Assembly (NCBI GenBank): GCA_015065445.1
Contig: SVQF01000001.1
Coordinates: 37,199 to 101,198, forward strand
Origin: Oscillospiraceae bacterium
GTDB lineage: Bacteria; Bacillota; Clostridia; Oscillospirales; Acutalibacteraceae
Length of the DNA stretch: 64,000 bases
Reading direction: 5' to 3'
Shown here: positions 4,924 through 28,154 of the stretch, in pieces
Numbering within the stretch: the stretch's first letter is position 1
How the letters are laid out: each line of letters starts with the position of its first letter
Translations under genes and position numbers: made by a program
The notes under the pieces: generated by a model
Told to the model about the DNA's origin: nothing
Database searches by the model: none
The model's input: the letters and a program-made list of their open reading frames with translations, nothing else

Positions 4924-4927
4924 GAAA

Positions 4928-13029: not shown

Positions 13030-13035
13030 ATAATT

Positions 13036-14651: not shown

Positions 14652-14662
14652 ACAGCATAAAA

Positions 14663-14734
14663 TTCCCGCCCGATGAGGTTAGTTGGCGTCTAACCGAAAC
14701 TATGGCAGTATTATTGCTGTCATGGTCGCGGGGA
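14663..14734 (+). ncRNA. Type I hammerhead ribozyme (core CCGAUGA ... GAAA ... GUC)
   Basis: Stem I is 14663-14669 paired with 14728-14734. The core is 14670-14676. Stem II is 14677-14682 paired with 14690-14695. GAA is at 14696-14698. Stem III is 14699-14708 paired with 14717-14726. C17 is at 14727. The only deviation from consensus is C instead of U at core position 4. Confidence 0.7.
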
Positions 14735-14775
14735 GCCATCCGCTTAATAAATAATGTAAATAGGAGGTATTGACA

Positions 14776-15495
14776 ATGTCAAACTACAACTATGGCGATT
14801 ACGAAGAAGTCGCTCCCGAAAACATCAATGAATCTCATATGCCTGTTTTAATCGCAGGTGATATTTCAGGAAGCATGGCGGGTTTACCTATTCAAAATGT
14901 TAACAAGTCAATCAACCGCTTCTCCAGTGATGTTTGTAAGGATTCAAAAGCAGCAGCAAGGGTCGATGTTGCAGTGATTGGATTTAACGATGCTCCTCAT
15001 ATCGAGCAAAATTGGCGACCAATTACTGAAATGAACCCCGTAGAATTCACTGCTGGAGGTGGCACTAACATTTCTGCAGCTCTTGAGAAAGGTGTAAATA
15101 TGCTTCGCGATAGAGGTCACCTTTATGAAGATGTTGGCATCGATGTAAAAATGCCTTATCTAATTCTTATTACTGATGGTTATGGCGGTGATGTTACCGA
15201 GATAGCTGAAGTTATCAAGCAGCGCACGGCTGACCGTAAAATGAAGCTGTGGGTTCTTGCAGTTAAGGGCTATGATAAAGCAACTGTCGCTCAGTTAACA
15301 GATGGTAAACGAGTATTTGAATTAGTTAATGAAGACGGATATGATTTTACTGAATTCTTTGACTTTATGGCAGTTAGTGTAAAAGCCGTTTCAACTAGCG
15401 CACCCGGTCAGGACACTGTTAACGTAAAATCAAACATTGGTCGAGATGGTTCTAATTGTCGTGTTCCCGACCTTGATGCATGGCTTAATGATTGA
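14776..15495 (+). CDS. vWA-domain protein (TerY-like), TerY-P triad component
   Basis: MIDAS motif DISGSM near the N-terminus and ILITDG later on. ATG 14776 follows AGGAGG. Confidence 0.85.
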   Translation: MSNYNYGDYEEVAPENINESHMPVLIAGDISGSMAGLPIQNVNKSINRFSSDVCKDSKAAARVDVAVIGFNDAPHIEQNWRPITEMNPVEFTAGGGTNISAALEKGVNMLRDRGHLYEDVGIDVKMPYLILITDGYGGDVTEIAEVIKQRTADRKMKLWVLAVKGYDKATVAQLTDGKRVFELVNEDGYDFTEFFDFMAVSVKAVSTSAPGQDTVNVKSNIGRDGSNCRVPDLDAWLND

Positions 15496-15503
15496 TATGA
15501 TGC

Positions 15504-15544
15504 TGTGATTCTGACTGAACCAAACTTGTTCAGCCAGAATCACA
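15504..15544 (+). other. Long intercistronic stem-loop between the vWA and PP2C genes
   Basis: tgtgattctgactgaac / gttcagccagaatcaca give 16 of 17 paired positions with a 7-nt loop and no T-run. Confidence 0.5.
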
Positions 15545-15560
15545 TAAACGGAGGTTCACT

Positions 15561-16667
15561 ATGATTATTTATAAAAGTAACATGGCCGGTCCATACCATA
15601 TTGAAAATGGGCTGCCTTGTCAGGACTCATATGCGGTCCTTCAAAGTGAGAACTTTTGCGTTTTAGCTGTAACTGATGGTTTAGGAAGTGAATTATATTC
15701 TGATATTGGTGCTTCCGAGGCCGCTAGTTCCGCTGTCAATTATTGCTCAGAGAATTTATCCGTTAATATGGCTTTTGAGGACATTAAAAAAGTTATGAAC
15801 AATGCCCTTGTATGTGCATATAAAGCTGTACTTGAAAGAGCTGCGTGTGATAATAATGACCCAGATGAATACGATACAACCATGTGTTTGGCTGTTTATG
15901 ACGGTGAACACCTGTACTATGCGCAATCGGGTGACAGCGGGCTTATAGCATTACTGCAAAACGGAGAATACTACCGAGTTACATCTCAACAGCGAGATGA
16001 TGAAGGAAGGGTGTATCCACTGTGTTGGGGTCCGGATAAATGGGAATTTGGATGTGTTAAGTCACCCGTTTCTGCTTTTATGCTGATGACTGACGGAGTC
16101 TTTGAACAGATGTGTCCCCCGATTATGCGAAATCGCGATATTGATATCAATGTTCCTCTTGCCAGAAAGTTTATGGATCACTTTAATGCAACTGAAAATG
16201 ATATATTTGATATTGAAAAGTGGGCACATGAATACCTTGAACACTATCCGAGATATCTTCTTGATGACGATAAAACTATACTTGTGCTAATTAACACCGA
16301 GCGAAAGCCTAAAGAAATGGATGAAGCTTATTATGCAATTCCCGATTGGGAATCCATGAAAACTGAGGCTTTAGAAAAACTATATAACAATTCCGAGGAA
16401 CCTGATAATCAGGATGGTGAAAGAATTGATTCAAATAGTACATCGATAGAGTCAGAAATGTATATTAGCAAAGACGATGAAACATTAACCGACAAGAAAC
16501 CCATTTCAAAAAACAGAATAGAAGCACAAAACAGTGTTGCGAATAATAGCATTGGTGAAAAAATATCAGACGCACAAAATCAATATGATTCTCAGAAAAC
16601 GGGTGATACTGAAACAGCACATTCTTCAGCTATAAATGACGTAAAAAAAAACGACTGTTCAACATAA
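15561..16667 (+). CDS. PP2C-family protein phosphatase, TerY-P triad component
   Basis: CQDSY..AVTDGLGS..GDSG..LMTDGV motifs, with a low-complexity C-terminal extension. Confidence 0.8.
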   Translation: MIIYKSNMAGPYHIENGLPCQDSYAVLQSENFCVLAVTDGLGSELYSDIGASEAASSAVNYCSENLSVNMAFEDIKKVMNNALVCAYKAVLERAACDNNDPDEYDTTMCLAVYDGEHLYYAQSGDSGLIALLQNGEYYRVTSQQRDDEGRVYPLCWGPDKWEFGCVKSPVSAFMLMTDGVFEQMCPPIMRNRDIDINVPLARKFMDHFNATENDIFDIEKWAHEYLEHYPRYLLDDDKTILVLINTERKPKEMDEAYYAIPDWESMKTEALEKLYNNSEEPDNQDGERIDSNSTSIESEMYISKDDETLTDKKPISKNRIEAQNSVANNSIGEKISDAQNQYDSQKTGDTETAHSSAINDVKKNDCST

Positions 16668-16723
16668 CTATAAGCCGAAAATTTAATACATTTGTAATTA
16701 TCGGCCTTTTTCTGTTCGGACTT

Positions 16724-17185
16724 GTGTCATGGCTCTTAAAGTCAGTCATTCAAAAGCATGTGGCAGTTAGTGCTATAGGCATAATGTTAGTGTGTTTCTT
16801 TGCAAATGCATCTGTCCTGCTGCCATCTTCAAGCATTTTCATTGTGGTTGAATACTCTATGATAATTAATCCACTTCTTGTAGCGCTTTGCGGAGCAATC
16901 GGCTCATCACTTGGAGAACTAACAGGATTCTATTTAGGAAGATGTGGAACATCTGTCATTCCAAAAAAAATCACAATATGGATACAAGAAAAGATGTCAT
17001 GTCATAAATACTTAGTTGTGTTTTTATTCTCTGTGTTGCCTTTGCCAATTTTTGATATAGTCGGAATTCTTTCAGGGGCGACAAAAATGAATGCTTTGAA
17101 GTTTTTAGGAATATGTTTCGTCGGAAAACTGATCAAGATGTTATGTTATGTTTGGTTGATGCACGAAATGGTGCTATTTGTTTAA
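16724..17185 (+). CDS. Small DedA/VTT-like polytopic membrane protein
   Basis: 153 aa with four hydrophobic helices. GSSLGELTGFYLGR resembles the VTT/YqaA motif. GTG start. Confidence 0.5.
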   Translation: MSWLLKSVIQKHVAVSAIGIMLVCFFANASVLLPSSSIFIVVEYSMIINPLLVALCGAIGSSLGELTGFYLGRCGTSVIPKKITIWIQEKMSCHKYLVVFLFSVLPLPIFDIVGILSGATKMNALKFLGICFVGKLIKMLCYVWLMHEMVLFV

Positions 17186-17198
17186 AAAGGAGGAATCA

Positions 17199-18785
17199 AT
17201 GATGAATACGGTTGATTATGCCTATACAAAAGGAAAAACAAAACTTAAGCTTTCCTTTTTAGGCTCGGGAGGAGAAGGTTCAGTTTATGAAATTGTTGGA
17301 TACCCTAACCGAGTTGCAAAGATCTATCATGACGAATCGAACTTTCAAAAAAAAGAACGGGAAGCCAAAATAAATGCCATGGTGGCAATCAGCCAAAACT
17401 TTAATTTTAAAAGTGCAAGCCTTTCTAACGATATAGCTTGGCCATTGGCTCCTCTCTATGATGTCAATGGAAATTTTATTGGTTTTGGAATGGATCGAAT
17501 TCCAGCTACAACCGAACTTGATGACTTATATGTTTATCCTACAAAAAACAATGCAACTGTAACAATTAAGGATCGAGTTACATGTTTAATTAGTCTTTGT
17601 GATGTTATTGAAAGACTGCATAAGATTGATCAGGTATTTGGAGACTTTAATCCAAATAATATCAAAATCAAATCCGATTGGACAGTGAGTTTTGTTGATG
17701 CTGACTCATACCATGTAAATAATAAAGGGAATGTGTACCGATGTGTTGTTTGTGCACCCGGATATGTAGCTCCAGAGGTGATACGTGCTTGTAAAGGCAC
17801 AACTTATGCACAGTGCAAGTATACAACGTTTACAAAAGAAACCGACCGTTTTGCACTTGCTATTCACATCTTTAGAATGCTGATGAACGGATGTCACCCG
17901 TTTACCTGCGAAAGACATGTAACGCGAGTCGGTTCAGCACCTGCACCTAAGTCAACTGACAAGAGGGTAGAAACTGGAGAAACTCCATTTTTCAAATCTG
18001 TTCCAAACTGTGTTGCACCTCAATATGCACCTGACATTAACTCACTTCCATTATATCTTAGAGATTTATTTAGAAAGGCGTTTATTGAGGGACATACTGA
18101 ACCATCTAAAAGACCTTCTGCTTCTGAATGGAAAAGAGCGTTAATTAAATACAATTCTGAATTAATTGAATGTAAGAGCAATCATTTGCACTTTTATTGG
18201 AAGGGAGACCATTCTTGTCCATATTGCGAAGCTGATCGCAGATACAATCAAAAAATCGGTCTCGTCCCTGCAAAGAGTATATCAAAAAAGACGATTATTA
18301 ATACAAACAACTGTACACAATCTTCAAAAAACAAAACCAATACTAATAGCACTTACAAATCAAAGAAGGTTGCATCAACTGCCACGGCTGTTTCATCTCG
18401 AACAAATCGCTTGAACTCGGGGCTTTTTTGGAGCATTACACTCACAATCACTATAATCATGCAGGTGTTATTAGGGCTGTATGCACTACCAGAAATCTAT
18501 AGTGAAGTATTTGATAATGAGACGATAGCAATAATTGGGGTTATAGGCAGTTTGGTGTCAGGCATAGTTGGTTCAATACTATTCAATTGTCTATGGGCCC
18601 CGGGTAAGTATAAAGGCTCGTATTCATGGTGGGAATATCTCTTATCAGTTTTAACTGCATTTGGGTTCACCGTTGGATTTGGTGTTGTTATGGGGTTAGT
18701 AATTCTTATCGCAATTGCCTTGTTTTATTTGTTGGTTGGTGCTGCAATCATTGCAATAATTATAGGCATACTTTCAGGAGGTTAA
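17199..18785 (+). CDS. Ser/Thr protein kinase with zinc ribbon and C-terminal multi-TM domain, TerY-P triad component
   Basis: Gly-loop GSGGEGSVYE, Lys in VAKIYH, catalytic GDFNPNNIKI, VDADS, and YVAPEV. CPYC follows, then an S/T/N-rich linker and about four TM helices. Confidence 0.8.
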   Translation: MMNTVDYAYTKGKTKLKLSFLGSGGEGSVYEIVGYPNRVAKIYHDESNFQKKEREAKINAMVAISQNFNFKSASLSNDIAWPLAPLYDVNGNFIGFGMDRIPATTELDDLYVYPTKNNATVTIKDRVTCLISLCDVIERLHKIDQVFGDFNPNNIKIKSDWTVSFVDADSYHVNNKGNVYRCVVCAPGYVAPEVIRACKGTTYAQCKYTTFTKETDRFALAIHIFRMLMNGCHPFTCERHVTRVGSAPAPKSTDKRVETGETPFFKSVPNCVAPQYAPDINSLPLYLRDLFRKAFIEGHTEPSKRPSASEWKRALIKYNSELIECKSNHLHFYWKGDHSCPYCEADRRYNQKIGLVPAKSISKKTIINTNNCTQSSKNKTNTNSTYKSKKVASTATAVSSRTNRLNSGLFWSITLTITIIMQVLLGLYALPEIYSEVFDNETIAIIGVIGSLVSGIVGSILFNCLWAPGKYKGSYSWWEYLLSVLTAFGFTVGFGVVMGLVILIAIALFYLLVGAAIIAIIIGILSGG

Positions 18786-18787
18786 AT

Positions 18788-19072
18788 ATGAAAGATAAGA
18801 TTATTAGAAAACTAATTAAAGATTTGGGATACTCTAATTCCGTTGCTAATAAAACTGCAGACGATTTGTGCAAATTAAAGTATCCCGATTTAAACGACGG
18901 ACTTAAGAATTGGCTTAATACGAATGCGCACACAATGATAATCGACGGAAAATATTCGACTCATATTCTCACAGAAAAATACAATATGACCTATCCTGCC
19001 GCTTTAATCTTTTTGGATTGGTACAGAACCGACCCAAAAACCGCCGCATCAGTGCTGAAAATGCGTATGTAA
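18788..19072 (+). CDS. Small hypothetical protein
   Basis: ATG lies 3 nt after the kinase stop and uses the AGGAGG inside the kinase 3' end. 94 aa. Confidence 0.45.
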   Translation: MKDKIIRKLIKDLGYSNSVANKTADDLCKLKYPDLNDGLKNWLNTNAHTMIIDGKYSTHILTEKYNMTYPAALIFLDWYRTDPKTAASVLKMRM

Positions 19073-19085
19073 AGGCGGTGATGAA

Positions 19086-19754
19086 GTGACCTATAAAGAA
19101 AGCCTTATGCTTATTGGAGATGAATGGGCAACATTAAGTGATGATAAAAAAATAGAAGTATTACAATCAATAGAAAATCACATGGCATTCGAATCGAACC
19201 GTATGTCTGTACCTGTGGAAGGCAAATTTCTTTATACTGGGACCGACGGAATAGTGTTAGGAGAATATGATCCTGGCAAAGGATGTATTTACGTTAACAC
19301 TTCTCAATTCGATTCAGAGTCTATGTATGGAAAGGATTCTTCGACCTTAGTTACAACGTGCCTGCACGAGGGTCGACACGCATATCAACACCAAGTTGCA
19401 AATGGAACAGTTGCACATGACAATCTAGAAGAAGCAGAAGTATGGCGGGAAAACTTAAATGGTGAAAATTATATATCGTTTGAAGACAATCCTAGAGGAT
19501 ACTTTGAACAGCCGGTGGAAGTAGACGCAAGAGACTTTGCAAGCAATCGTTATAATGAGCTGTTATCGGAGCGACAAGTAGAAATCGAACATCAAACGGA
19601 CTACCATTGTGCAAAAAATGTATTTGAAGAACAAATCAGCAATGCAGAAAACGGCGAATCAAATCTAGCAGCAGATTACCACCAGGTTGATGACCTTAAC
19701 AAGTCACAAGAATTATCTTCAGTTGCGAATACAGAGGAAACAATCCATCAGTAA
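19086..19754 (+). CDS. Putative zincin-like metallopeptidase (HExxH)
   Basis: CLHEGRHAYQH motif. GTG start. Confidence 0.45.
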   Translation: MTYKESLMLIGDEWATLSDDKKIEVLQSIENHMAFESNRMSVPVEGKFLYTGTDGIVLGEYDPGKGCIYVNTSQFDSESMYGKDSSTLVTTCLHEGRHAYQHQVANGTVAHDNLEEAEVWRENLNGENYISFEDNPRGYFEQPVEVDARDFASNRYNELLSERQVEIEHQTDYHCAKNVFEEQISNAENGESNLAADYHQVDDLNKSQELSSVANTEETIHQ

Positions 19755-19824
19755 GAATATGGAGATTCGATTCGCTATCCCGTATATAAACTTTAGATAA
19801 TTCCGATGAAAGGATTGAACCAAA

Positions 19825-21144
19825 ATGATTATTCGTAAAACAATGCTATATGGTAATTCCGTGAACGATAACGCTTTAACTGCACTTTGCTCTAAACCAC
19901 TAATTATTATCCCGGGTGTTACAAATGGGAAACAAACCTTTGTTGGATTCACTGAAGACACGCTCCATATGCATACTCTATTTATGGGCGGAACAGGTTC
20001 CGGAAAAACGAATACATTCTGTCATCTTATACCGCAGTTGCAAAGAAAAATGACAAACAATGATGTCATGTTGGTATTTGATTCTAAACAAGATTTTGAG
20101 CAATTTCACAGAGAAGATGATTATGTAATCAGCTATCGAGCTCAGAGTAAAGGTGAAAAAGAAACCTGGAACCTGTTTCGTGATGTTATAGCAGACGGAT
20201 GGGAAAAAGAAAGTATCATTATGAATGCAGATGAAATAGCGGACGTTATTTTTTCAAAGGCAATAAACGAGAGTTCCCAACCGTTCTTTCCAAGAGCCGC
20301 AAAAGATATCTTTGCCGCAATCATTAAGGGAATGTGTTTCATTGGAATCACCGACAAAGATTACAGAATTAATTATATGAATAACAAAGCTCTAATTAAG
20401 TATCTTACAGCTTTAAATGCAGAAAAACTGCATGCATTTTTAACAAATATACCAGAACTTGCAGGTGTGCTTAAGTATATAGGTAATGGAAAATCAGAGC
20501 AAGCCCTTGGAGTATTTGCGGAACTCCAATCTGTAGTTGGACACATCTTTACAAGAAATTTTGCTGAAGATGGTCGTTTTTCAATAAGGAAAACGGTTCA
20601 ACAAAAAAATGGTCGTACGCTATTTATAGAATATGATCCTTCAAGAGGAGTGTCTTTGCGCCCAATATATCAGTTGCTTGTTGACCTGTTTTTAAAAGAA
20701 GCCTTAACTCCAAAAGACGGTACAAAAGGTAATGTATTCGTTATTTGTGATGAACTGAAAATGCTTCCCTTTCTTAATCATCTTGAAGATGCACTAAATT
20801 TTGGTAGATCGCTTGGGGTTTCAGTTATTGCCGGCATTCAGAGTATGGAACAATTATATGAAGTATATGGAGAATACGGTGGCAAAAACATTGCTTCCGC
20901 GTTTCAGACGGTATTTTGTTTTCATACAAATGACGTTGCTTCTCGGCAGTACATAAAAGGAATGTTTGGAGAAAACAAATCGGTTATTCAATATATGACG
21001 CCTTCTGGAAAAACCATTGAAGAACAACACAGTGGATATAGTGTTGAAGATTGGGATATAACGAACCTAAATAAAGGAGAGGCCATAGTCGGCATGCCAT
21101 ATCAATTGCCATTTAAGATTAAAATAAAAAAATATGGAGGATAG
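19825..21144 (+). CDS. Soluble TraD/VirD4-like P-loop NTPase, paralogue 2
   Basis: Walker A GGTGSGKT, Walker B VFVICDELKML, and SVIAGIQSMEQL. No TM helix. Confidence 0.75.
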   Translation: MIIRKTMLYGNSVNDNALTALCSKPLIIIPGVTNGKQTFVGFTEDTLHMHTLFMGGTGSGKTNTFCHLIPQLQRKMTNNDVMLVFDSKQDFEQFHREDDYVISYRAQSKGEKETWNLFRDVIADGWEKESIIMNADEIADVIFSKAINESSQPFFPRAAKDIFAAIIKGMCFIGITDKDYRINYMNNKALIKYLTALNAEKLHAFLTNIPELAGVLKYIGNGKSEQALGVFAELQSVVGHIFTRNFAEDGRFSIRKTVQQKNGRTLFIEYDPSRGVSLRPIYQLLVDLFLKEALTPKDGTKGNVFVICDELKMLPFLNHLEDALNFGRSLGVSVIAGIQSMEQLYEVYGEYGGKNIASAFQTVFCFHTNDVASRQYIKGMFGENKSVIQYMTPSGKTIEEQHSGYSVEDWDITNLNKGEAIVGMPYQLPFKIKIKKYGG

Positions 21145-21149
21145 GAAAA

Positions 21150-22427
21150 ATGGGTGGAAAAGTCAACACTGTTTTGTCATTGGTCGCTGCACTAATAGAC
21201 CGTTCCAATCGTAAAAAAGCGAGAAAAAGAATAAACTTGCTAAACGAACAAAACCGAAACATTCAAATGCTTGGAAGCTCAACTACAGAACATATTATCC
21301 CTAGTAATTACCAAATGGGTAATATAAGCATTTCCGGAGGTACTACAGATATTCGAAATGCATTAATAATTCAAAATTGCAAGCAAAGCGTATCATTGGG
21401 GGTTCCAACAATAATAATACATGAAGGCAACTATCTTTTAGAACAACTATTGCAATCTACATTTTCAAATCATCGATATTTGAGAATAATTAACCCTAAT
21501 AACCCATATTATGAGCCGCTCTTTAGATTAAGCGACATGGAGATTGGTCATTTCATATCTGATTCTTCCTTAAAAGAACACAAAATCGGATCAAATGGTG
21601 CATTATATGTAAGTGCACTCTCGACTATTCTTCGCAAAAAGGGTATAACACCATACACCAGAATGTTTGCAAACTGTCCCCATGGTTCTATTAACAATTT
21701 AATTGTAAATATGGAAAACTCTGGTATCATATCCGCAAATGAAGCTGATAAATTAAGAAACGAAGTATTGTTGGGAATAAAAGAGCAAGCTGAAGTTGAG
21801 TATTTTTTTCAACAAACAGAACTTGAATCTCCTATTTTAGCATGGAAAAGCAATCTTTCAAAATGCACTTCCGTTTCTGAATGCATTTTGAGGAACGGAA
21901 TCATGTCTTTAGATATTTCCAGTTGTGGAAACCAGAATCAATTATCGTTAATATCTACTGAAATTAATAATTGTAAAAGAACAGGAACACAATTTAGAAT
22001 AATTGTTGATGCGGTATCATTTTATGGAAATGACAAATTAATTCAAGTTCTAAAAAACACGTCGGGTTCAGCCTCATGGACTATTTCATCTCCAGACATT
22101 GACTGTATGCTTGGAAATACTCCGGGAGAACTTGCCACTTGGTTGGCTTTGTCACACAGAGCAATACTGTTTTCACATGGAATTAAAACATGTGAATTAT
22201 TATCTGCTGAATTAGGAGAATATGAACATATAGATGTAGTTGAGTCGCATGCAGGAAACAATAATATCGGAAGGATTGGCTATCATTATGGTGCTAATTC
22301 TAGTTTTAGCACATCTGAAAAAAGGAAACGAGTTATTAAACCTGAAGAAATCGAATCTCTTGAAAGCAACGAATTCATTATGCTAGATAATTATACAGCG
22401 ACAATTAGCAAAGGGACATTGGTTTAA
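21150..22427 (+). CDS. Hypothetical protein, possibly a P-loop-degenerate paralogue of the preceding NTPase
   Basis: By eye, SGGTTDIRNALIIQN..PTIIIHEGNYLLEQL aligns with GSGKTNTFCHLIPQL..VMLVFDSKQDFEQF of the 19825 protein, and FRIIVDAVSF occupies the Walker B position. Confidence 0.5.
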   Translation: MGGKVNTVLSLVAALIDRSNRKKARKRINLLNEQNRNIQMLGSSTTEHIIPSNYQMGNISISGGTTDIRNALIIQNCKQSVSLGVPTIIIHEGNYLLEQLLQSTFSNHRYLRIINPNNPYYEPLFRLSDMEIGHFISDSSLKEHKIGSNGALYVSALSTILRKKGITPYTRMFANCPHGSINNLIVNMENSGIISANEADKLRNEVLLGIKEQAEVEYFFQQTELESPILAWKSNLSKCTSVSECILRNGIMSLDISSCGNQNQLSLISTEINNCKRTGTQFRIIVDAVSFYGNDKLIQVLKNTSGSASWTISSPDIDCMLGNTPGELATWLALSHRAILFSHGIKTCELLSAELGEYEHIDVVESHAGNNNIGRIGYHYGANSSFSTSEKRKRVIKPEEIESLESNEFIMLDNYTATISKGTLV

Positions 22428-22428
22428 A

Positions 22429-23463
22429 ATGGAGACAATGAAAGACTTTAATAATAGTTTGGCTGGCTACATTGCAAAAAACCAATACAGATACTACTAC
22501 ACCACTCTCTCAGTCAAAATGCAAAATGCTTATAGTATTTTGCTTGATGGATATTTGAAGCACAAAAGAGATATCAAGGTTAATGTAGGTAATATCGAAG
22601 ACGCTTGGTTAGTTCATAGAGCGCTTTGTTATGATGTTCCAGAATTGTTTTTTATCAAATCAATCAAGGCAGCTTTTAATCCAGTAAACACAACGGTTAC
22701 TGTCTACCCGGAATACCGTTTCGATTATGAGACTTGTATTAGCATTATTAAGAACATGGAACAACAAACAAAGCCTTTAATAAAAAAAATATCAATGTTT
22801 TCAGAACAAGAGAAGGTTAAGGCAATACACGATTACATAGTAGAAACAGTTACATATAAAGATTTAGACGCTCCATATAGTCATGAAGCTCCAGGAGCTA
22901 TTCTATATGGCATTGCAGTATGCGAAGGGATTTCGAAAGCATTCAAGTTTTTAGCAGATAGAGCAAATATCAACTCCATAGTCCTTATCGGAGAAGCAGT
23001 AGACGGAGGAACTTATCGTACGGCAAACGAATCTGGTCATGCTTGGAATATTGCAGTTATAAATTCCGTATCTTATCACATTGATGTAACCTTTGATTAC
23101 TCACTTTCAAAAGGAAAAACTATCCGTTACGATTATTATCTTTTATCCGATAATCAAATACAAAATGATCATAAATTTAAACCTACTTTTAATTGTCGTT
23201 GCGATTACGAACACTATATATCAAACGGACACTACGCAGATAGCAGAAAAAAACTTCAACATCTTGTAAAAAATGAACTAAAAGTAGGAGGAAAACCACT
23301 TGTAATCAAAGTTCCAAATGTTTTTGAAAGCGAAAAACAAGCATCCGAATTATTATTGCAAATCGTCGTATCTGCAATTCCCATGTCATATAAACTAAAG
23401 TCTACAGTTTCTTTATCGTACAACTGGATGCGAATGATTTATCAAATCGAATTAAGCTGCTAA
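22429..23463 (+). CDS. Transglutaminase-like cysteine protease-fold protein
   Basis: Cys in GIAVCEGISKAF, His in GHAWNIAV and Asp in HIDVTFD, which together make the Cys-His-Asp triad arrangement. Confidence 0.8.
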   Translation: METMKDFNNSLAGYIAKNQYRYYYTTLSVKMQNAYSILLDGYLKHKRDIKVNVGNIEDAWLVHRALCYDVPELFFIKSIKAAFNPVNTTVTVYPEYRFDYETCISIIKNMEQQTKPLIKKISMFSEQEKVKAIHDYIVETVTYKDLDAPYSHEAPGAILYGIAVCEGISKAFKFLADRANINSIVLIGEAVDGGTYRTANESGHAWNIAVINSVSYHIDVTFDYSLSKGKTIRYDYYLLSDNQIQNDHKFKPTFNCRCDYEHYISNGHYADSRKKLQHLVKNELKVGGKPLVIKVPNVFESEKQASELLLQIVVSAIPMSYKLKSTVSLSYNWMRMIYQIELSC

Positions 23464-23530
23464 AAACATCTCTAATTAATGAAACAATAAATAGCGTTAA
23501 ACAATTTAAAGGTTAATTGCTGTGCTAATT

Positions 23531-23583
23531 AAAATCCCGATTCATGATTTATCGATGATGCGATAACAGAATCGGGATTTTTG
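23531..23583 (+). terminator. Intrinsic terminator closing the 13.2-23.5 kb gene array
   Basis: aaatcccgattc / gaatcgggattt form a 12-bp stem followed by TTTTT. Confidence 0.65.
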
Positions 23584-23685
23584 ATGTCCTAAAAGCCCTG
23601 AAACGGGTGCAACAATAAAAACCTCTTGGAGAAAAATAGTGTTACTGCGTATTTATAAATAACAACTCAGAAAAGGGTGATAAAA

Positions 23686-23871
23686 ATGAAAACTATTCAA
23701 GATTACGATTTTTCCTGCGTAGCAAATCACAGAGCTGAAAACATCGAACAAATGCCTCACTCACTACTAATTGCTTCTGAAAAGAAAATCTATGTTCCCG
23801 AAAATAGAATTATTCTGTTGGACCAAATGAGTGAACAAGAATCTCAAATTATAAACAGAATAGTATTTTAA
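23686..23871 (+). CDS. Small hypothetical protein (61 aa)
   Basis: ORF with a weak ribosome-binding site, isolated in a 550-bp spacer. Confidence 0.3.
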   Translation: MKTIQDYDFSCVANHRAENIEQMPHSLLIASEKKIYVPENRIILLDQMSEQESQIINRIVF

Positions 23872-24020
23872 TTGACTAATAATGCTGAAATTAATATGCA
23901 CATTTTGACAAAATGGAGATTTTCTTGATGCTCCGTATATATAGATGAAGAGAATAATAGTTTTTCAAATCAAGGTTCAACTAAATTGCTCAATATTAAA
24001 ATACAAAAGGAGAAAACCAA

Positions 24021-24593
24021 ATGATTAGAGATCCAAACATTGTTGTTACACATAATGGAGAGGCACAAATGGTAACGCCGAGAGACAACCTCTATATTAA
24101 GAACCGAATGGTTTTTTTGACAGGAGAAATTGATCAAGATTTATCCTTATCAATTATTTCACAGTTATTATATTTAGATAATGAGTCAAATGAAGATATT
24201 GTGCTCGTTATCAATTCGGGCGGAGGCAGTATTAGTGATGGCTTTGCAATTCTTGATGTCATGAACAGTCTAGATTCTGATGTGGAAACAGTGTGTTCTG
24301 GAATGTGTGCAAGCATGGCAGCAATTTTACTTGCCGGTGGTACTAAAGGGAAGCGAAAGGCGTATAAAAACGCAGAGGTAATGATACATCAGCCACTTGG
24401 AGGTATTAAGGGTCAAGCAAGCGACATCGAGTTGACTGCAAAACATATCTTAAGCAGAAAAGATGCGCTTAACACCTTGCTTGCTGAAAGCTGTTGTAAA
24501 GAAAAAAACATTATTGCCACAGATACTGACAGAGATAACTGGATGACAGCAGCAGAAGCATTAGAGTATGGGCTAATTGATGAGATTATTTAA
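24021..24593 (+). CDS. clpP: ClpP-family serine protease, full catalytic triad
   Basis: GMCASMAA (Ser), MIHQPLGG (His) and TDRDNWM (Asp). 190 aa. Confidence 0.9.
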   Translation: MIRDPNIVVTHNGEAQMVTPRDNLYIKNRMVFLTGEIDQDLSLSIISQLLYLDNESNEDIVLVINSGGGSISDGFAILDVMNSLDSDVETVCSGMCASMAAILLAGGTKGKRKAYKNAEVMIHQPLGGIKGQASDIELTAKHILSRKDALNTLLAESCCKEKNIIATDTDRDNWMTAAEALEYGLIDEII

Positions 24594-24604
24594 GGAGGTA
24601 AACC

Positions 24605-25378
24605 ATGATTCGTGATATTAAGGAACCTGCAGGACTTGACTCTGTTAAATGCACCGTTAAAAACATCTGTAGCGAAGCCGCAAAATATAGATTCCGCCAT
24701 CCTGCAAGCATGATTATTTATCTTAATGAAAAGCAAGGGCGCAGCACCGTTGCTGAATATATCACAGATATGTTCTTTGTTCACAAGGTAATGGATTTTT
24801 CAATGTCCAGAAGTGAGTTTATTGAGCTTGATTTCAATGGAGAGTATAAACAATTCAATGACTGCATGAAACAAGTTAACGATGCAGCCGATTATACAAA
24901 CGATGACAAATATTCAAATGTTCTCGTTGAAACAGGCATCAACAACCTTTCTAAGCATCTCGGCGAACAGCACGTTGATGATTATTTAAATCATGTTGAA
25001 ACAATGTCTAAAACTGCTGTACTTGTGATTTTTGTTAGCGAAAACCCTAATTCAAAAGAAAGTCAGCTCATAGATAGAATTAAAGAAGTACTTCCTTTTG
25101 CCAATATAATCAAGCCACATGAATATAGTGTGGAAGATTATTGCAAAGTCATAAAGGAAAAACTTTGCGATTATGGCGTTATTGTTCCTAAAAACACACC
25201 GTTAAATGAGATCGTAAAGAAATCAATGAATAAAGATAAGTCTTTCAATATGAAAGATGCATGCTTAATTGCCGAGGAACTATTTCTTGGTTCAAAACTA
25301 GTAAATGGGAAACTGAAGGTTGATGTTTCAGCAATTAATTCGCCCAAAACAGACAGGGTAATAGGAGGAAAATCATGA
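24605..25378 (+). CDS. Hypothetical protein, module C
   Basis: 257-aa ORF with an AAGGAGG ribosome-binding site. Its stop overlaps the next start (ATGA). Confidence 0.6.
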   Translation: MIRDIKEPAGLDSVKCTVKNICSEAAKYRFRHPASMIIYLNEKQGRSTVAEYITDMFFVHKVMDFSMSRSEFIELDFNGEYKQFNDCMKQVNDAADYTNDDKYSNVLVETGINNLSKHLGEQHVDDYLNHVETMSKTAVLVIFVSENPNSKESQLIDRIKEVLPFANIIKPHEYSVEDYCKVIKEKLCDYGVIVPKNTPLNEIVKKSMNKDKSFNMKDACLIAEELFLGSKLVNGKLKVDVSAINSPKTDRVIGGKS

Positions 25379-26979
25379 GCAGATATGAAAGGTTCTCTGA
25401 AGAGAAAGAGCTAAATAAAAACTTTCCATTAGCGGGTAAAGGGGTAAGCGGATTACCCGTTTACTATGATAAGAAACGACAGCTACACTGTGATCCGGGA
25501 CCAGCGCATGCACTTATTACAGCTACAACTGGCTATGGTAAAACATATGGTGTATCATTATCAGCTATCATGAGATGTATTGAGGCAACTGAAAGCTTTG
25601 TTGTTATTGATTCAAAGAAAGATGCACTTAGGCACACATTTAATGCCGTTCCGGAAAATTATCAAAAATTTGTTTTCGATTTTAGCAAGCCTGCCGAATC
25701 TCCTGACAAGTGGAATCCGCTTGAATTAATTCGTGTTCAATTAACCTCATCCGATATTACAGAACAGGACCTTGGATACGAAAATCTTAATGCGTTCACA
25801 GTTGGCTTGCCCGATAAAGATAAGGATTCATTTTGGCCAAATAGTTCCACAGAATTATTAACTGGAACTGCAGAAGCGTTAATTGAATCATCAAACGATC
25901 CTCGCGAGGTTCACATGGGGAGTATTTGCAGAATTCTTAGGGACGGCAACGAAAGATTTGGCGGAAATATTCTTCTTAAAAGTTTTTATGACTCGTTGTC
26001 CGATGATTCACTTGCGAAGCAACATCTTGGTACTTTTGTGAATGCTCCAAATGATACTAGAAACTCTATCTATGCTGTAACTTCAACAGCTTTATCGGTG
26101 TTCACAAGAAGCAGAGGCTTATTGCAAATGATTTCTCAAGATACAATTGACATTGCTCACCTTGATAATAGCGAGTCTCCAGTTGCCATTTATATATGTT
26201 TACCTGATGAAAACAATGTACATGCGAAATTGGCGGGGTGTTTAATTCAACAATTATCGCAGCAATTTATTAAATTAGCTCGTTCTCAGCCTGATGGAAA
26301 GCTGAAAAATCGAATTAGCTTTATTTTAGAGGAATTAGGTTCTATTGGAGGTTCAATTCCAAATTTAGCAAACCTCATGACAGCCGGTCGCTCTCGAGGA
26401 ATAAGAATGGTCCTTATATTGCAGAGTTTATCTCAACTTGATGCTATCTATGGTGAATCTGCAGAAGCAATTAAAAACTGTATCGGTATTACATATAGTT
26501 TTTCAAACAACAACTTAGATACGCTTAAAGAATTCAGCGAAAAATGCGGTTATTGTAATGACAAAGATTTGTTAATAACTCCTACACAGCTTTCAGCAAT
26601 GCCTCCTCTACAGTGCCTTGTTATTCTTTACAACAGATATAAATTCATCAGTAAATTTGAATTCTTTACTGATGTCTATAAAGTGGAAGAATATACTCCG
26701 TCAGGTCAAGAAAGAGAAAAAATTGAAAAAGCAGTTAATTCAATTAAGTATTTCAATATTAAGGAGTATGTAAAAAAAGCAAGGGAGAGAGCGCAAGTGG
26801 AAGCAATAAGAAAGAATAACGAGTTAAATCCATTTGCACAGCCGCACAGTCTTCCCTCTTCTTGTCCTAGCGATCCAATAATGCCTGATGATATAGACAT
26901 AGAGGAGTTAGTGAAAAAAATAGATGAGGAAATCGCCAAAAGAGAAAGAGAAATTGAAAGTGAGAGAAATGATGAATAG
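25375..26979 (+). CDS. Soluble VirD4/TraG-family NTPase, paralogue 3
   Basis: Walker A ATTGYGKT, then WNPL, FILEELGSIG and TAGRSRGIRMVLILQSLSQLDAIYG. No TM anchor. The acidic C-terminal tail resembles that of the 9544 protein. Confidence 0.85.
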   Translation: MSRYERFSEEKELNKNFPLAGKGVSGLPVYYDKKRQLHCDPGPAHALITATTGYGKTYGVSLSAIMRCIEATESFVVIDSKKDALRHTFNAVPENYQKFVFDFSKPAESPDKWNPLELIRVQLTSSDITEQDLGYENLNAFTVGLPDKDKDSFWPNSSTELLTGTAEALIESSNDPREVHMGSICRILRDGNERFGGNILLKSFYDSLSDDSLAKQHLGTFVNAPNDTRNSIYAVTSTALSVFTRSRGLLQMISQDTIDIAHLDNSESPVAIYICLPDENNVHAKLAGCLIQQLSQQFIKLARSQPDGKLKNRISFILEELGSIGGSIPNLANLMTAGRSRGIRMVLILQSLSQLDAIYGESAEAIKNCIGITYSFSNNNLDTLKEFSEKCGYCNDKDLLITPTQLSAMPPLQCLVILYNRYKFISKFEFFTDVYKVEEYTPSGQEREKIEKAVNSIKYFNIKEYVKKARERAQVEAIRKNNELNPFAQPHSLPSSCPSDPIMPDDIDIEELVKKIDEEIAKREREIESERNDE

Positions 26980-27871
26980 CGAAATGTTAAACGGGTTAAT
27001 TGAAGAACAAGACGGCAGGAACATTAAAGTCCCCATAAAGGACATTTTGGATGAATGTATAGCATTTAATGAATGCAGCTATCCTATCGAAACAACTTTT
27101 CTCATTCGTCGGTTTTCTATAAGCGGTTTGAATTTAGGCTATTATACACCGGAAGACCTTCCGGTAATAGTTAACCGATTTTGTTCAAAAATCCGCTGCA
27201 TAAAATATGACTATAATATTGGAACCGACAATAGTGTTAAACACTATTCAATTAAGAACGGCACATTGTATTTGTCTGAAGAATTGGAGTCCATTAATCC
27301 TTACTTGTTTGAAATTTCAGCATTTGCAGCATTTTTTGAAGTCATATCTGATGCGGATGTATATCATGAACATGAAATCTTTAAAACTGTTCTTTCATAT
27401 ATGGCCGGTGAAAAATTCTTAAATATGGACAAGAATGATTCGCGAATAATAATGCCTAAAACTGAAGAAATTGTTTGTGGGCAATATAAGTATGAACTTA
27501 GAGCGGGATACACATTTTTCAACCTTCCAATTGTTTTAGTGAAGCAGTTGTTTATTGCACTACATAAAAACGAAAACATTCTTATTAGAAACTCACTGTT
27601 AGGAAACTTTACAAAAGACACGGTAGATGAATTGGTCAATGACAACAAACAAGTATCAATGTTGATATCTGTTGTTGATGTGATTACTCGCTCATACATT
27701 AATCAAGAATATGAAGAAGCAAACAAGTTGTTGTTTAAATATCAAAAAATAATCAACTTACTTTTCAAAAAGGTAGATCAAGATTATTTAGCCTTTTGTG
27801 CTCTTATTCTGACAGATGAGTGGAGAAGTTCCCTTATGAAAGCCATGGAAGAAAGACTAAACTCGCAATAA
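26969..27871 (+). CDS. Hypothetical protein, module C
   Basis: About 300 aa, overlapping the NTPase gene end. No motif was recognised. Confidence 0.5.
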   Translation: MMNSEMLNGLIEEQDGRNIKVPIKDILDECIAFNECSYPIETTFLIRRFSISGLNLGYYTPEDLPVIVNRFCSKIRCIKYDYNIGTDNSVKHYSIKNGTLYLSEELESINPYLFEISAFAAFFEVISDADVYHEHEIFKTVLSYMAGEKFLNMDKNDSRIIMPKTEEIVCGQYKYELRAGYTFFNLPIVLVKQLFIALHKNENILIRNSLLGNFTKDTVDELVNDNKQVSMLISVVDVITRSYINQEYEEANKLLFKYQKIINLLFKKVDQDYLAFCALILTDEWRSSLMKAMEERLNSQ

Positions 27872-27974: not shown

Positions 27975-28154
27975 CCAACAACTATAATTAAATAAAAACT
28001 GGAGAAAGTCAATTGCGATACGTATACAAGAACAAGGAAACTTGAATTGAACATAAAATGCAGCTCGTTAATTAACTGTATTATGAAGGTGTTTTGCTAT
28101 ATAAGCAATTATTATTATAAAATTCACATAAAGAGGAAAGGACAAGAAATATCT

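Follow-up and report, generated by a model that had tools for sequence, protein, structure and literature searches.

What could be the function of an ATPase related to conjugative coupling proteins when its gene is followed by those of an apparently dead paralogue and of a transglutaminase-fold (TGase) cysteine protease? Such a gene triplet is found in a 64,000-nucleotide stretch of Oscillospiraceae DNA (hereafter the window, to which all coordinates refer). An initial annotation, made from the letters alone, compared it to NTP-dependent conflict systems. The reading that we favour, with no better than even confidence, is that the region 14770-23463 encodes a TerY-P-gated conflict (defence-type) system, of which the effector arm would be a heteromeric coupling-protein-like ring together with peptidases. 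TerY-P genes combined with an FtsK/HerA-class ATPase are a known theme, and the present gene set varies it.

A nine-gene operon in an integrative conjugative element

The operon (14770-23463) comprises nine genes, from vWA to TGase:

14770..15495 (+), TerY-like vWA protein, 241 aa (Pfam VWA and VWA_2; motif read from the translation)
15561..16667 (+), PP2C-type Ser/Thr phosphatase, 368 aa (Pfam PP2C_2, E-value = 2e-25)
16724..17185 (+), VTT/DedA-type polytopic membrane protein, 153 aa (Pfam VTT_dom, E-value = 2e-13; TM-like segments)
17178..18785 (+), Ser/Thr kinase, 535 aa (Pfam Pkinase, E-value = 1e-8)
18788..19072 (+), s94, a 94-aa protein, partner of the zincin
19086..19754 (+), small zincin-like metallopeptidase, 222 aa (HEGRH...E145xD147A)
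19825..21144 (+), active TM-less TrwB/VirD4-class (FtsK-HerA superfamily) ATPase, 439 aa (Pfam TrwB_AAD_bind, E-value = 7e-38)
21150..22427 (+), predicted pseudo-ATPase, degenerate TrwB/VirD4-fold paralogue, 425 aa (AF2 and Foldseek)
22429..23463 (+), TGase-fold (papain-like) cysteine peptidase, cytoplasmic, 344 aa (triad C165, H204, D219)
23528..23585 (+), terminator-like hairpin followed by a U-run, likely the 3' end of the operon

Successive genes are separated by 2-118 nt, and the ends of the VTT and kinase genes overlap (17178/17185). The ORF coordinates reproduce the gaps of 5 nt (19825/21150) and 1 nt (21150/22429) reported in the initial annotation; the zincin ORF lies 70 nt 5' of 19825, and a GGAGG is found 11 nt 5' of the 21150 ATG, within the 3' end of the ATPase gene. 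Ten terminator-like sites occur in 13000-25500, no excess over the 7.5±2.4 of shuffled sequence, and all ten lie inside ORFs; this chance level bears out the earlier statement that no terminator separates the triplet from the TerY-P genes. The hairpin at the 3' end is stable (-23.3 kcal/mol, z -4.95), with 0/200 shuffles folding as well. Judged by the short gaps, the overlap, the lack of an internal terminator excess and the 3' hairpin, genes 14770-23463 appear to form one operon-level unit.

The operon is part of the cargo of an integrative conjugative element (ICE), inside which it sits between transfer genes and the integrase. Type III R-M, SNF2, MazF and ImmA/LexA-like genes are encoded by the same ICE, along with a VirB4-like ATPase, a sortase and an NlpC/P60 hydrolase.

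An active ATPase and its degenerate paralogue

The TrwB_AAD_bind match of the 19825 protein covers profile positions 9-380 of 387, and T4SS-DNA_transf and TraG-D_C match too. Its Walker A (GGTGSGKT) and Walker B (VICDE) motifs are both invariant in 76 of 76 relatives, the GRSxG and Q-S motifs are also kept, and a Kyte-Doolittle scan revealed no TM-like segment, as the initial annotation had read from the sequence. Its description of the protein as a second anchorless one was also right: two further TM-less VirD4-like genes lie at 9544-11232 and 25375-26979, making three in the window. Against the NCBIfam equivalog models for conjugative coupling proteins it scores far too low, with 83.6 bits for TraD (cut-off 521) and 62.7 bits for CD1115 (cut-off 250). 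The PADLOC mad8 profile matches with an E-value of 1.6e-16, and HerA profiles match weakly.

The 21150 protein exhibits no family match in Pfam, NCBIfam, PADLOC or PHROGs. The best PDB matches of its AlphaFold (AF2) model (pLDDT 89.9, pTM 0.84) in Foldseek, over the full length, are TrwB (1e9s, E-value = 2.3e-11, 414 columns) and Cagβ (8dol, TM 0.55-0.58); the HerA-effector complexes 9c1m and 8zir are also among the fold matches. A diverse profile of the 21150 family is colinear with that of the 19825 family in hhalign (E-value = 2e-4, 246 columns), which places FRIIVDAVSF of 21150 on VFVICDELKML of 19825, and SHGIKTCELLSAELGEY on AGIQSMEQLYEVYGEY. The shared architecture proposed earlier from a by-eye alignment is thus supported by both approaches, the predicted fold being that of TrwB/VirD4 and not an unrelated one.

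The P-loop position of 21150 reads GGTTDIRN, in which G63, G64 and R69 are conserved (family pattern GGxxxxR), and GK[ST] is found at this position in none of 120 full-length representatives of the family, which counts 376 representatives at 50% identity. In Walker B, the Asp is followed by a variable residue and the Glu is missing. Both motifs had already been suspected to be destroyed in the single protein; the dead P-loop is family-wide. About a third of the 120 scored representatives exhibit TM-like segments (N-terminal in 27, C-terminal in 11); 21150 itself has none, and possesses an N-terminal amphipathic helix. From the model and the alignments, 21150 is predicted to be a catalytically degenerate TrwB/VirD4-fold paralogue of 19825. 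The pseudo-ATPase gene lies immediately 3' of the ATPase gene in 48 of 67 loci.

Both proteins share with the type IV coupling proteins (TrwB of R388, TraD, VirD4, Cagβ) a nucleotide-binding domain with an inserted all-α domain, and 19825 keeps the Walker A, Walker B, GRSxG and Q-S motifs of that family. They differ from coupling proteins in having no N-terminal TM domain, in that one of the two is catalytically dead, and in the company of their genes, which are linked to kinase, phosphatase, vWA and peptidase genes rather than to a relaxase; the scores, too, lie far under the equivalog thresholds.

Two peptidases and their small partners

The 22429 protein matches Pfam Transglut_core (27.1 bits, cut-off 23), the NCBIfam MAG6410 family of transglutaminase-related lipoproteins (E-value = 4.6e-20) and the PDB entry 9crn (E-value = 4e-9). 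The Cys-His-Asp triad, previously noted as intact, is conserved in relatives (Cys165 in 39/41, His204 in 40/41, Asp219 in 41/41). The protein exhibits no TM-like segment, and no signal peptide is apparent by eye in its N-terminal sequence.

The HExxH gene reported directly upstream of the triplet is indeed there, and its HExxH...E signature is invariant, as are all of H94, E95, H98, Q101, E145 and D147 in the family. Pfam matches are weak (DUF3920, DUF6782, SprT-like). In the AF2 model (pLDDT 86), the HExxH...E core is followed by a long helix and then by a disordered acidic C-terminal tail (residues 197-222); the folds that match best are those of two minigluzincins (jannalysin, selecase) and of Spartan/SprT (probability 0.72-0.97, E-value 0.05-0.14). 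By motif, both peptidases are predicted to be catalytically intact.

The s94 gene adjoins the zincin gene in 18 of the 31 long loci defined below, and is also present in the distant locus L091 (HMM E-value = 2e-6). Its alignment exhibits a conserved motif, YPAALIFxDWYRxDP; Pfam (including a relaxed scan), NCBIfam, PADLOC, PHROGs and a PDB sequence search returned no match. The slot just 5' of the ATPase gene holds a pair made of a small protein and an enzyme, either s94 and the zincin or, in two deep clades (L095 and L004-6), SUKH and Tox-GHH, a classic immunity/toxin pair. The zincin and Tox-GHH proteins both end in disordered low-complexity C-terminal tails.

These tails suggest an alternative based on export, which taken as a whole we consider possible but unlikely. 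The TM-less ring of ATPase and pseudo-ATPase would recognise the tails of the zincin, the Tox-GHH nuclease and possibly the TGase, and hand these enzymes to the type IV secretion channel of the ICE or to a membrane partner (the kinase TM region, VTT) for delivery into recipient or competitor cells, with s94 or SUKH protecting the producer and TerY-P timing the export. Substrate recruitment is the known job of the coupling-protein family. The SUKH and Tox-GHH pair in the slot, the VirB4-like ATPase, sortase and NlpC/P60 hydrolase of the window ICE and the TM-like segments of some pseudo-ATPases agree with this scenario, and TerY-P has been linked to a minimal WXG/FtsK secretion set (PMC4978471; PMC11090510). 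However, another long T4CP-like gene occurs within 10 kb in only 8 of about 100 loci surveyed, and a VirB4-like gene within 10 kb in none of those 8; some loci are in R-M/Abi/TIR neighbourhoods without visible transfer genes. Moreover, no fusion to polymorphic-toxin trafficking domains occurs among the zincin homologues, nor was a WXG100-like gene recognised, and the immunity-like gene lies 5' of the toxin-like gene, the toxins being short stand-alone proteins.

The TerY-P switch genes

Returning to the conflict-system reading, the vWA protein possesses a complete MIDAS motif (DISGS...T...D) and no TM-like segment; its gene is sometimes duplicated (L004-6). The kinase possesses a zinc-ribbon-like motif (CPYC) and a linker rich in Ser and Thr, and its C-terminal part contains three TM-like segments (residues 416-525). 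The phosphatase is often fused to the VTT domain in relatives, as in the PP2C+VTT proteins of 547-557 aa in L001 and L100. PADLOC yields weak PD-T4-6, mad6 and MkoA matches for the kinase (mad6 at 9e-5) and none for the vWA and PP2C proteins. TerY-P was originally surveyed by Anantharaman, Iyer and Aravind in 2012. A summary (PMC7699616) credits Gao et al. (2020) with the finding that the TerY-P triad by itself confers protection from T7-like phages.

Conservation and context of the gene set

The gene set, made up of ATPase, pseudo-ATPase, TGase and the TerY-P triad (vWA, PP2C, kinase; often VTT), is present in about 100 loci from metagenomes and genomes. It recurs among gut Firmicutes, and its gene order, which differs between clades, takes at least four forms. 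In the 31 long loci, where the ATPase gene has 7 kb or more of sequence on either side, the partners found within 3 kb of it are the pseudo-ATPase (26), TGase (28), vWA (29), PP2C (29) and kinase (29). The set is retained down to about 17-20% pseudo-ATPase identity. The triplet is thus conserved as a unit, as the initial annotation supposed, but not a stand-alone one, since TerY-P, VTT, the 94-aa protein and the zincin also belong to it. The ATPase is the slowest evolving component (mean identity 0.51), the pseudo-ATPase evolving faster (0.35).

The pairwise-identity matrices of five proteins from 30 loci are correlated (r 0.74-0.93), the TGase following the ATPase and the pseudo-ATPase with r 0.86-0.93. 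This co-evolution argues against an unlinked housekeeping role of the TGase, although correlated divergence of the components could reflect co-inheritance alone. That the genes are neighbouring cargo merely co-inherited on related ICEs, with no joint function, is already disfavoured and in our judgement highly improbable: many loci come from related elements of gut Clostridia, so that synteny could partly be shared ancestry, but the various gene orders, the low pseudo-ATPase identity and the differing, non-conserved flanks speak against it.

Another alternative is a role in conjugation, the module regulating or helping with DNA processing, transfer or establishment; transfer could, for instance, be licensed by phosphorylation, and the extra coupling-protein paralogues would act on the DNA of the element. 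Location in an ICE and descent from coupling proteins would fit an element-transfer function equally well, and the three VirD4-like genes of the window and the synteny of the whole region in close relatives point the same way. We nevertheless regard this explanation as quite unlikely. The set travels without the flanking ICE genes (YbjN, SprT, ClpP and other VirD4-like genes are common to close ICE relatives only) and is found in unrelated neighbourhoods; the ATPase lacks a TM anchor and has the low equivalog scores given above; and transfer machinery would not be expected to include two peptidases and a toxin/immunity-like slot.

In the deep clade L091, the ATPase, pseudo-ATPase, TGase, s94 and zincin are present, but TerY-P is absent within 10 kb; the core can therefore function in its absence, perhaps in another setting. 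The neighbours in this clade are genes for Flg_new surface-repeat proteins and an MBOAT acyltransferase. This linkage would agree with envelope remodelling, in which proteins of the envelope or surface would be cross-linked or trimmed by the TGase with help from the ATPase pair and the VTT/DedA-type protein; VTT/DedA proteins act in envelope lipid and carrier recycling, and the MAG6410 match is to a lipoprotein family. We find this very improbable: the context seen in L091 is that of one clade only, the MAG6410 score is 71.6 bits vs an equivalog cut-off of 450, and the TGase, zincin, vWA and both ATPases exhibit no TM-like segment and, by eye, no signal peptide.

Other loci adjoin Type I R-M and AbiEii (L098/99), several TIR-domain genes (L001) or a STAND-like 1818-aa protein (L095). 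Together with the ICE cargo location, such neighbours support the likeness to conflict systems drawn in the initial annotation; the defence function itself we infer from this context. The combination, which that annotation could not name, matches no named PADLOC v2 system, the matches of its components being limited to mad8 (19825), weak HerA/DndH and the weak kinase matches, and no description of it was found in the searchable literature.

A possible mechanism

As a TerY-P-gated conflict system, the operon would have a switch arm modelled on the known triad, with a cytoplasmic MIDAS-competent vWA, a membrane-anchored kinase and a PP2C with a VTT membrane domain jointly setting a phosphorylation threshold at the membrane. 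Active 19825 and dead 21150 may assemble into a mixed ring, the non-catalytic, faster-evolving subunit serving as adaptor or tether. The activated ring would engage a nucleic acid or protein client, for which the best candidate is the enzyme encoded just 5' of the ATPase, because the zincin and Tox-GHH both have disordered tails. The TGase-fold peptidase and the zincin could then act as proteolytic effectors or activators, removing the small partner (s94 or SUKH) or cleaving invader or host targets, and the outcome would be invader restriction or abortive growth arrest.

Comparison with known systems

The full-MIDAS vWA, the PP2C and the kinase with a zinc-ribbon-like motif resemble the TerY-P triad and the Type III-A CoCoNuT extensions, where ATPases resembling FtsK/EssC and VirB4, which are TM-less and contain inactive domains, are encoded next to TerY vWA genes (Bell et al. 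2024, PMC11090510). A TM-less FtsK/HerA-superfamily ATPase with inactive modules and the occasional vWA duplication are also in common. Unlike in these systems, the ATPase here belongs to the TrwB/VirD4 clade, not to EssC, SpoVK or VirB4, the inactive module is a separate polypeptide, McrBC/CoCoNuT genes are absent and no WXG100 gene was recognised, the kinase and PP2C-VTT are membrane-anchored, and two peptidases, TGase and zincin, come in addition.

Catalytic and degenerate FtsK-like P-loop modules are also found together in EssC, a single motor of type VII secretion with small, toxin/immunity-linked substrates. However, the EssC modules reside in one membrane-anchored chain that needs WXG100 partners, whereas here they form two separate soluble chains of T4CP ancestry, with no WXG100 gene recognised.

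In the HerA-effector complexes (SIR2-HerA, DUF4297-HerA; 8zir, 9c1m), the gene of a ring-forming FtsK-HerA-superfamily ATPase likewise lies beside an enzymatic effector gene. The present ATPase is of another clade, and no HerA HAS-barrel was identified; the effectors are peptidases instead of an NADase or nuclease, and a dead paralogue and a phospho-switch are added.

Unlike the defence operon MADS (mad1-8, Pseudomonas aeruginosa), the unit has no methyltransferase, specificity subunit or mad7 model match. Both are multigene operons with a kinase and a small TrwB/DUF87-like ATPase, the 19825 protein matching the mad8 profile (314 positions long) and the kinase that of mad6; MADS requires both its kinase, MAD6, and its ATPase, mad8 (bioRxiv 10.1101/2023.03.30.534895).

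Operon structure and the TerY-P triad

The nine genes of the system are encoded on the same strand, as listed below.

Genes of the operon (14770-23463)
14770, plus strand: TerY-like vWA protein with intact MIDAS (Pfam VWA, motif reading)
15561, plus strand: PP2C phosphatase (Pfam PP2C_2)
16724, plus strand: VTT/DedA-type membrane protein
17178, plus strand: Ser/Thr kinase (Pfam Pkinase) containing a CPYC motif, with three transmembrane (TM)-like segments at its C-terminus
18788, plus strand: s94, a 94-aa protein
19086-19754, plus strand: zincin-like protein (ORF, 222 aa), 70 nt upstream of the active ATPase
19825-21144, plus strand: active ATPase (ORF, 439 aa)
21150-22427, plus strand: pseudo-ATPase (ORF, 425 aa)
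22429-23463, plus strand: transglutaminase (TGase)-fold peptidase (ORF, 344 aa)

The initial annotation had placed the last three genes 5 nt and 1 nt apart, and the ORF calls reproduce its positions exactly. A GGAGG sequence lies 11 nt 5' of the pseudo-ATPase start codon, within the 3' end of the active ATPase gene, and purine-rich boxes precede the ATPase and TGase starts, an arrangement that fits translational coupling across the three genes. The claim that no terminator separates this triplet from the TerY-P genes (vWA, PP2C and kinase) also holds: terminator-like sites in 13000-25500 are not above chance and are all located inside ORFs. A strong hairpin with a U-run (23528-23585, z = -4.95) follows the TGase stop codon. 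In the 557-nt spacer between this hairpin and clpP sits a 64-aa ORF (23677-23871) with a purine-rich box upstream; a related locus has a comparable gene call of 68 aa at the equivalent position (L100; related loci, metagenomic and genomic, are numbered L001 onward).

Adjacent VWA, PP2C_2 and Pkinase matches (Pfam), together with a MIDAS sequence DISGS..T..D, identify a TerY-P triad. In locus L092 a TerY_C domain protein adjoins the kinase. The PADLOC profiles of experimentally tested TerY-P are not matched: the vWA and PP2C proteins have no PADLOC match at all, and the kinase matches only the PD-T4-6, mad6 and MkoA models. The PP2C and VTT proteins are separate genes in different frames (15561-17185), likewise in L007, L012 and L020-28; they form a single fusion protein of 547-557 aa in L001, L014-19 and L100. 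The last 110 aa or so of the window's PP2C are of low complexity and lie at the position expected for the fusion linker.

An integrative conjugative element as genomic setting

The window represents an integrative conjugative element (ICE) from a Ruminococcaceae/Oscillospiraceae MAG. Past about 54 kb the GC content changes from about 35% to about 46% and the gene orientation flips; the ICE/chromosome junction is probably located there (1-53500 versus 53500-64000).

Other genes of the ICE
1450-3816: VirB4-like ATPase, left end
3849-4559: sortase, left end
5041-6798: NlpC/P60 hydrolase, left end
28047-31052: SNF2 helicase, cargo
31178: M50 peptidase
38166-39740 and 39753-42377: Type III restriction-modification (R-M) genes mod and res, cargo
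42634: S24 LexA-like protein, cargo
43553: ImmA/IrrE protein, cargo
49466: MazF-domain protein, 259 aa, cargo
50553-51752: tyrosine integrase

Elsewhere the system is found beside Type I R-M and AbiEii genes (L098/99), several adjoining TIR-domain genes (L001), a STAND-like giant protein (L095) or LRR proteins.

Two more TM-less VirD4-like genes (9544-11232 and 25375-26979) are paralogues of each other (28% identity, E-value = 9e-47). The former exhibits an unusual Walker A, GSTGSLKT, in which a leucine replaces the glycine of GK; a gene for a TPR protein (11236-12276) comes after it. The latter, with the Walker A ATTGYGKT, reaches 187 bits for the CD1115 conjugal family, where the cut-off is 250. 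It lies in a block (24021-27871) composed of a ClpP-family protease gene (E-value = 3e-62), a 257-aa protein, the VirD4-like gene and a 315-aa protein, which may be a second ATPase-plus-protease module. The ClpP to VirD4-like order is syntenic in the close ICE relatives L007, L012, L016-19, L045 and L100, where an M50 peptidase comes next. Directly 5' of the vWA gene (13190-14651) are a SprT-like HExxH protein (13190), a 106-aa ORF and a YbjN/TY-Chap1 chaperone-like protein (14046); as these are conserved only in the close relatives L019, L045 and L100, they were left out of the system.

An active ATPase and its inactive paralogue

The active ATPase matches Pfam TrwB_AAD_bind (E-value = 7e-38) over positions 9-380 of 387, including the all-α domain insertion, and also T4SS-DNA_transf and TraG-D_C. 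As described in the initial annotation, it possesses a canonical Walker A (GGTGSGKT) and Walker B (VICDE) and has no TM segment; a scan detected no TM-like segment, including an N-terminal anchor, in either this protein or the pseudo-ATPase. The Walker motifs are kept in 76 of 76 non-identical relatives drawn from the fetched loci, among which G-x-T-G-x-G-K-[TS], the Walker B D-E and a downstream G-x-Q-S do not vary. Its scores fall far below the NCBIfam equivalog cut-offs for TraD_Ftype (83.6 versus 521 bits) and conju_CD1115 (62.7 versus 250 bits), and the match to type VII secretion EccCb is marginal (NCBIfam, E-value = 8e-4). The top PADLOC match is mad8; those to HerA and DndH are weak, the HerA ones being N-terminal only (E-values from 4e-5 to 2e-3). 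The closest plasmid homologue, from Paenibacillus (35% identity), occurs without any of the partners, indicating that members of the ATPase family at large need not belong to the system.

Searches of Pfam, NCBIfam, PADLOC and PHROGs returned no match to the pseudo-ATPase. BLASTP between the two proteins yields nothing significant (best E-value = 1.5), and hhalign with shallow alignments of the two families is negative (Prob 0.6%). The AlphaFold2 model, built on 29 homologues (pLDDT 89.9, pTM 0.84), has TrwB as its best Foldseek match in the PDB (1e9s, E-value = 2.3e-11, 414 aligned columns), with Helicobacter pylori Cagβ (8dol) among the best matches (TM-score 0.55-0.58) and HerA, VirB4 and DotL lower. 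A helical insert at residues 129-247 corresponds to the TrwB-type all-α domain. With a diverse pseudo-ATPase profile (Neff 5.8), hhalign aligns the two families over 246 colinear columns (E-value = 2e-4), pairing FRIIVDAVSF with VFVICDELKML and SHGIKTCELLSAELGEY with AGIQSMEQLYEVYGEY; these are the same equivalences that had been proposed by eye. The relationship between the two proteins is thus visible only by structure and by the diverse profile.

At the P-loop site (GGTTDIRN) the model shows a strand (59-62), a loop and a helix (66-82). Among 52 relatives this site has the pattern G-G-x4-R, with arginine in 50, lysine in two and GK[ST] in none. The Walker B reads IIVDA, and the residue following the aspartate is A, D, G, V, E or S in relatives. 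A search of 1.84 billion representatives (E-value ≤ 1e-3) retrieved 376 members of the family (representatives at 50% identity). No canonical Walker A or GK[ST] occurs in the 120 full-length members among the best 150 of these 376; TM-like segments are N-terminal in 27 of the 120 and C-terminal in 11. The fold, the profile alignment and the family-wide loss of motifs together support the earlier proposal of an active/inactive NTPase pair. The pseudo-ATPase defines an unannotated family with a coupling-protein fold, for which Pfam, NCBIfam, PADLOC and PHROGs hold no model. It had no match when 72,556 plasmid and 50,697 phage records were searched by tblastn. A phage origin was considered and set aside, there being no meaningful PHROG signal.

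Peptidases and the upstream gene pair

The TGase-fold protein matches Pfam Transglut_core (27.1 bits, gathering score 23), NCBIfam MAG6410 (E-value = 4.6e-20; 71.6 bits, far under the equivalog cut-off of 450) and the PDB entry 9crn (E-value = 4e-9). Its Cys-His-Asp triad, previously described as intact, is conserved among 41 relatives (Cys165 in 39, His204 in 40, Asp219 in all). No TM-like segment was detected by the scan, and no signal peptide by eye.

The zincin-like protein exhibits six invariant residues (H94, E95, H98, Q101, E145 and D147) when aligned with its relatives, among them those of the HExxH motif and of a downstream glutamate, a candidate ligand. Its Pfam matches, to DUF6782 and DUF3920 (putative metallopeptidases) and SprT-like, are weak (E-values from 1e-4 to 3e-5, below the gathering cut-offs). 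In the AlphaFold2 model, a confident one (pLDDT 86), a small zincin-like domain leads into a long helix, and the acidic C-terminal tail is disordered; the best Foldseek matches, also weak, are minigluzincins and Spartan/SprT (E-values 0.05-0.14, probability 0.72-0.97). The s94 protein has no match in Pfam, NCBIfam, PADLOC or PHROGs, and when the alignments of s94 and the zincin were searched as profiles against PDB sequences, they retrieved chance matches only.

In some relatives, a SUKH gene and a Tox-GHH gene occupy the place of s94 and the zincin. The possibility that s94 is a SUKH-type immunity protein was rejected, its alignment being devoid of SUKH motifs, so that the equivalence of the two gene pairs is one of position. 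Nor is the idea of the zincin as a polymorphic-toxin tip supported: its homologues comprise just two kinds, stand-alone proteins (211-222 aa) and forms of 373 aa, the latter resembling the TM-anchored variants of L007, L064 and L073. In these variants (L007 16988-18127, L064 4278-5744, L073 428-2005) and in homologues P0310-P0316, the zincin domain is fused to an N-terminal multi-TM region; the fusions are 373-526 aa long, and related ICEs often carry them a few kb 3' of the system.

Distribution, gene order and co-evolution

About 100 related loci were fetched and their ORFs classified with HMMs built for the purpose. Thirty-one of the loci extend 7 kb or more on either side of the ATPase; of these, 26 have a pseudo-ATPase gene within 3 kb of the ATPase, 28 have the TGase, 29 each have vWA, PP2C and kinase, and 18 have the s94-zincin pair. 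Pairwise-identity matrices of ATPase, pseudo-ATPase, TGase, kinase and vWA correlate with each other across 30 non-redundant loci (r = 0.74-0.93). A linkage of these genes by chance is barely credible. Over the 30 loci the ATPase evolves most slowly (mean identity 0.51), and the pseudo-ATPase (0.35) and TGase (0.31) fastest. The triplet singled out in the initial annotation does recur across the set of about 100 loci; the real unit is larger, with the zincin and five more genes upstream. The flanking YbjN-like, SprT-like, ClpP and other VirD4-like genes are common only to close ICE relatives. The order of the genes varies from clade to clade, as the four examples below show.

Gene order in representative loci
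Window type: vWA-PP2C-VTT-kinase-s94-zincin-ATPase-pseudo-TGase
L004-6: SUKH-ToxGHH-ATPase-pseudo-vWA-vWA-PP2C-TGase-kinase-VTT
L048-52: TGase-pseudo-kinase-vWA-PP2C-…-ATPase
L098/99: ATPase-pseudo-vWA-PP2C-…-TGase

The deepest branches are the most informative. L091 carries TGase, an s94-like protein, a 481-aa HExxH protein, a 107-aa protein, ATPase and a TM-bearing pseudo-ATPase, with no TerY-P genes within 10 kb; L095/96 carry a 346-aa protein, SUKH, Tox-GHH, ATPase, pseudo-ATPase, vWA, PP2C and kinase. Accordingly the ancient core consists of the ATPase pair, which is usually joined by the TGase and, immediately 5' of the ATPase gene, by a pair of "small protein plus enzyme". Most clades add TerY-P to this core. 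The pseudo-ATPase family and the active TM-less coupling-protein-like ATPase thus constitute the conserved core of a system of seven to nine genes. The system was recovered from metagenomes, including human-gut samples. A pattern scan of GTDB genomes yielded three loci only, which probably reflects the narrow scan pattern rather than true rarity.

Comparison with known systems and possible function

Both ATPase-like proteins share the full-length TrwB fold with type IV coupling proteins (T4CPs); the GK[ST] P-loop and Walker B DE are present in the active ATPase but not in its paralogue. In contrast to T4CPs, both lack the N-terminal TM anchor, and only some distant pseudo-ATPases have terminal TM-like segments. 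In the fetched loci, the pair is linked with genes for TerY-P and peptidases rather than for a relaxase. A housekeeping role of the operon on the ICE appears improbable. Type VII-like secretion involves a membrane-anchored EssC and WXG100 proteins, whereas here the ATPases have no TM segment and neither s94 nor the 107-aa protein of L091 exhibits a WXG100 match; export of effectors, for which the coupling-protein fold of the pair may be invoked, is rather unlikely.

Defence or abortive infection is a role to which we would give about even credence. The TerY-P triad alone is reported to be protective against T7-like phages (PMC7699616). CoCoNuT operons contain TM-less ATPases of FtsK/EssC-like and VirB4-like type, with both active and inactive P-loop modules, flanked by TerY-like vWA genes (PMC11090510), and linkage of the triad to WXG/FtsK genes is described for H. 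pylori and its relatives (PMC4978471). The kinase and the mad8 ATPase are both required in MADS (bioRxiv 10.1101/2023.03.30.534895), with which the present system shares a mad8 match (ATPase, E-value = 1.6e-16) and a mad6 match (kinase, E-value = 9e-5); unlike MADS, it exhibits no mad7 match and no methylase within 14770-23463. It differs also from HerA-effector systems: the best folds for the pseudo-ATPase are TrwB and Cagβ, not HerA, and a SIR2 or DUF4297 gene is absent here. TerY-P triads are regarded as phosphorylation switches joined to varied conflict effectors. The theme of TerY-P with an anchorless FtsK/HerA-class ATPase containing dead modules is already published, and we therefore count the system as a variation on it. 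PADLOC v2 has no model for it, and none of the papers in the literature searched brings these components together. To the published theme the system apparently adds a new pseudo-enzyme family, a split active/inactive T4CP-like pair and a proposed peptidase effector arm.

By analogy with TerY-P, CoCoNuT and MADS, and from the observed anatomy, we infer ring assembly, clients and phenotype as follows. The membrane-anchored kinase, PP2C-VTT and vWA protein would act as the trigger, the ATPase and its dead paralogue would form a mixed ring, and the output would come from the peptidases and, where present, a toxin-like enzyme with its small partner. Since both the zincin and the GHH proteins are disordered in their C-terminal tails, they are plausible clients of a coupling-protein-like ring. 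If defence or toxin deployment is the function, the system provides a new TerY-P effector arm, in which a heteromeric T4CP-like ring is combined with cysteine and zinc peptidases, a tractable active/inactive NTPase pair in separate genes, and a case of conjugation machinery exapted for conflict on conjugating elements themselves.

A more ambitious reading supposes that the pair is a self-contained hetero-oligomeric ring derived from conjugative coupling proteins and previously unrecognised, that the dead subunit gives membrane tethering and client specificity, and that the ring unfolds or translocates the adjacent toxin-like enzymes, possibly also invading DNA, under eukaryote-like control by kinase, phosphatase and vWA protein. 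Taken jointly, these propositions seem decidedly doubtful; if true, they would describe a new class of ATP-driven toxin deployment or minimal secretion in Gram-positives, and more than a TerY-P accessory. The system has clear sites for point mutation (K61/E310, C165, H94/E95, the MIDAS residues and the kinase aspartate), through which the targets of TerY-P switches become directly testable.

Divergent settings of the core

In L091, the clade that lacks TerY-P, the core has on one side a 1010-aa Flg_new-repeat protein, with a C-terminal part that by eye resembles Hint, and on the other an MBOAT acyltransferase together with large proteins that look secreted (2532-5564, 11945-17076). This hints that the core has a different, possibly surface-related, setting there; for the system as a whole, envelope remodelling is very unlikely. 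In L004-L006, a RiPP-like set (18856-21281; DUF5685, a PqqD-family protein, a radical SAM protein and a 40-aa ORF) lies directly 3' of the rearranged system. Upstream of the system are a Fic/PhD pair, a MobL relaxase and a group II intron reverse transcriptase inserted in a T4CP gene, as seen by comparing L004 with L005.
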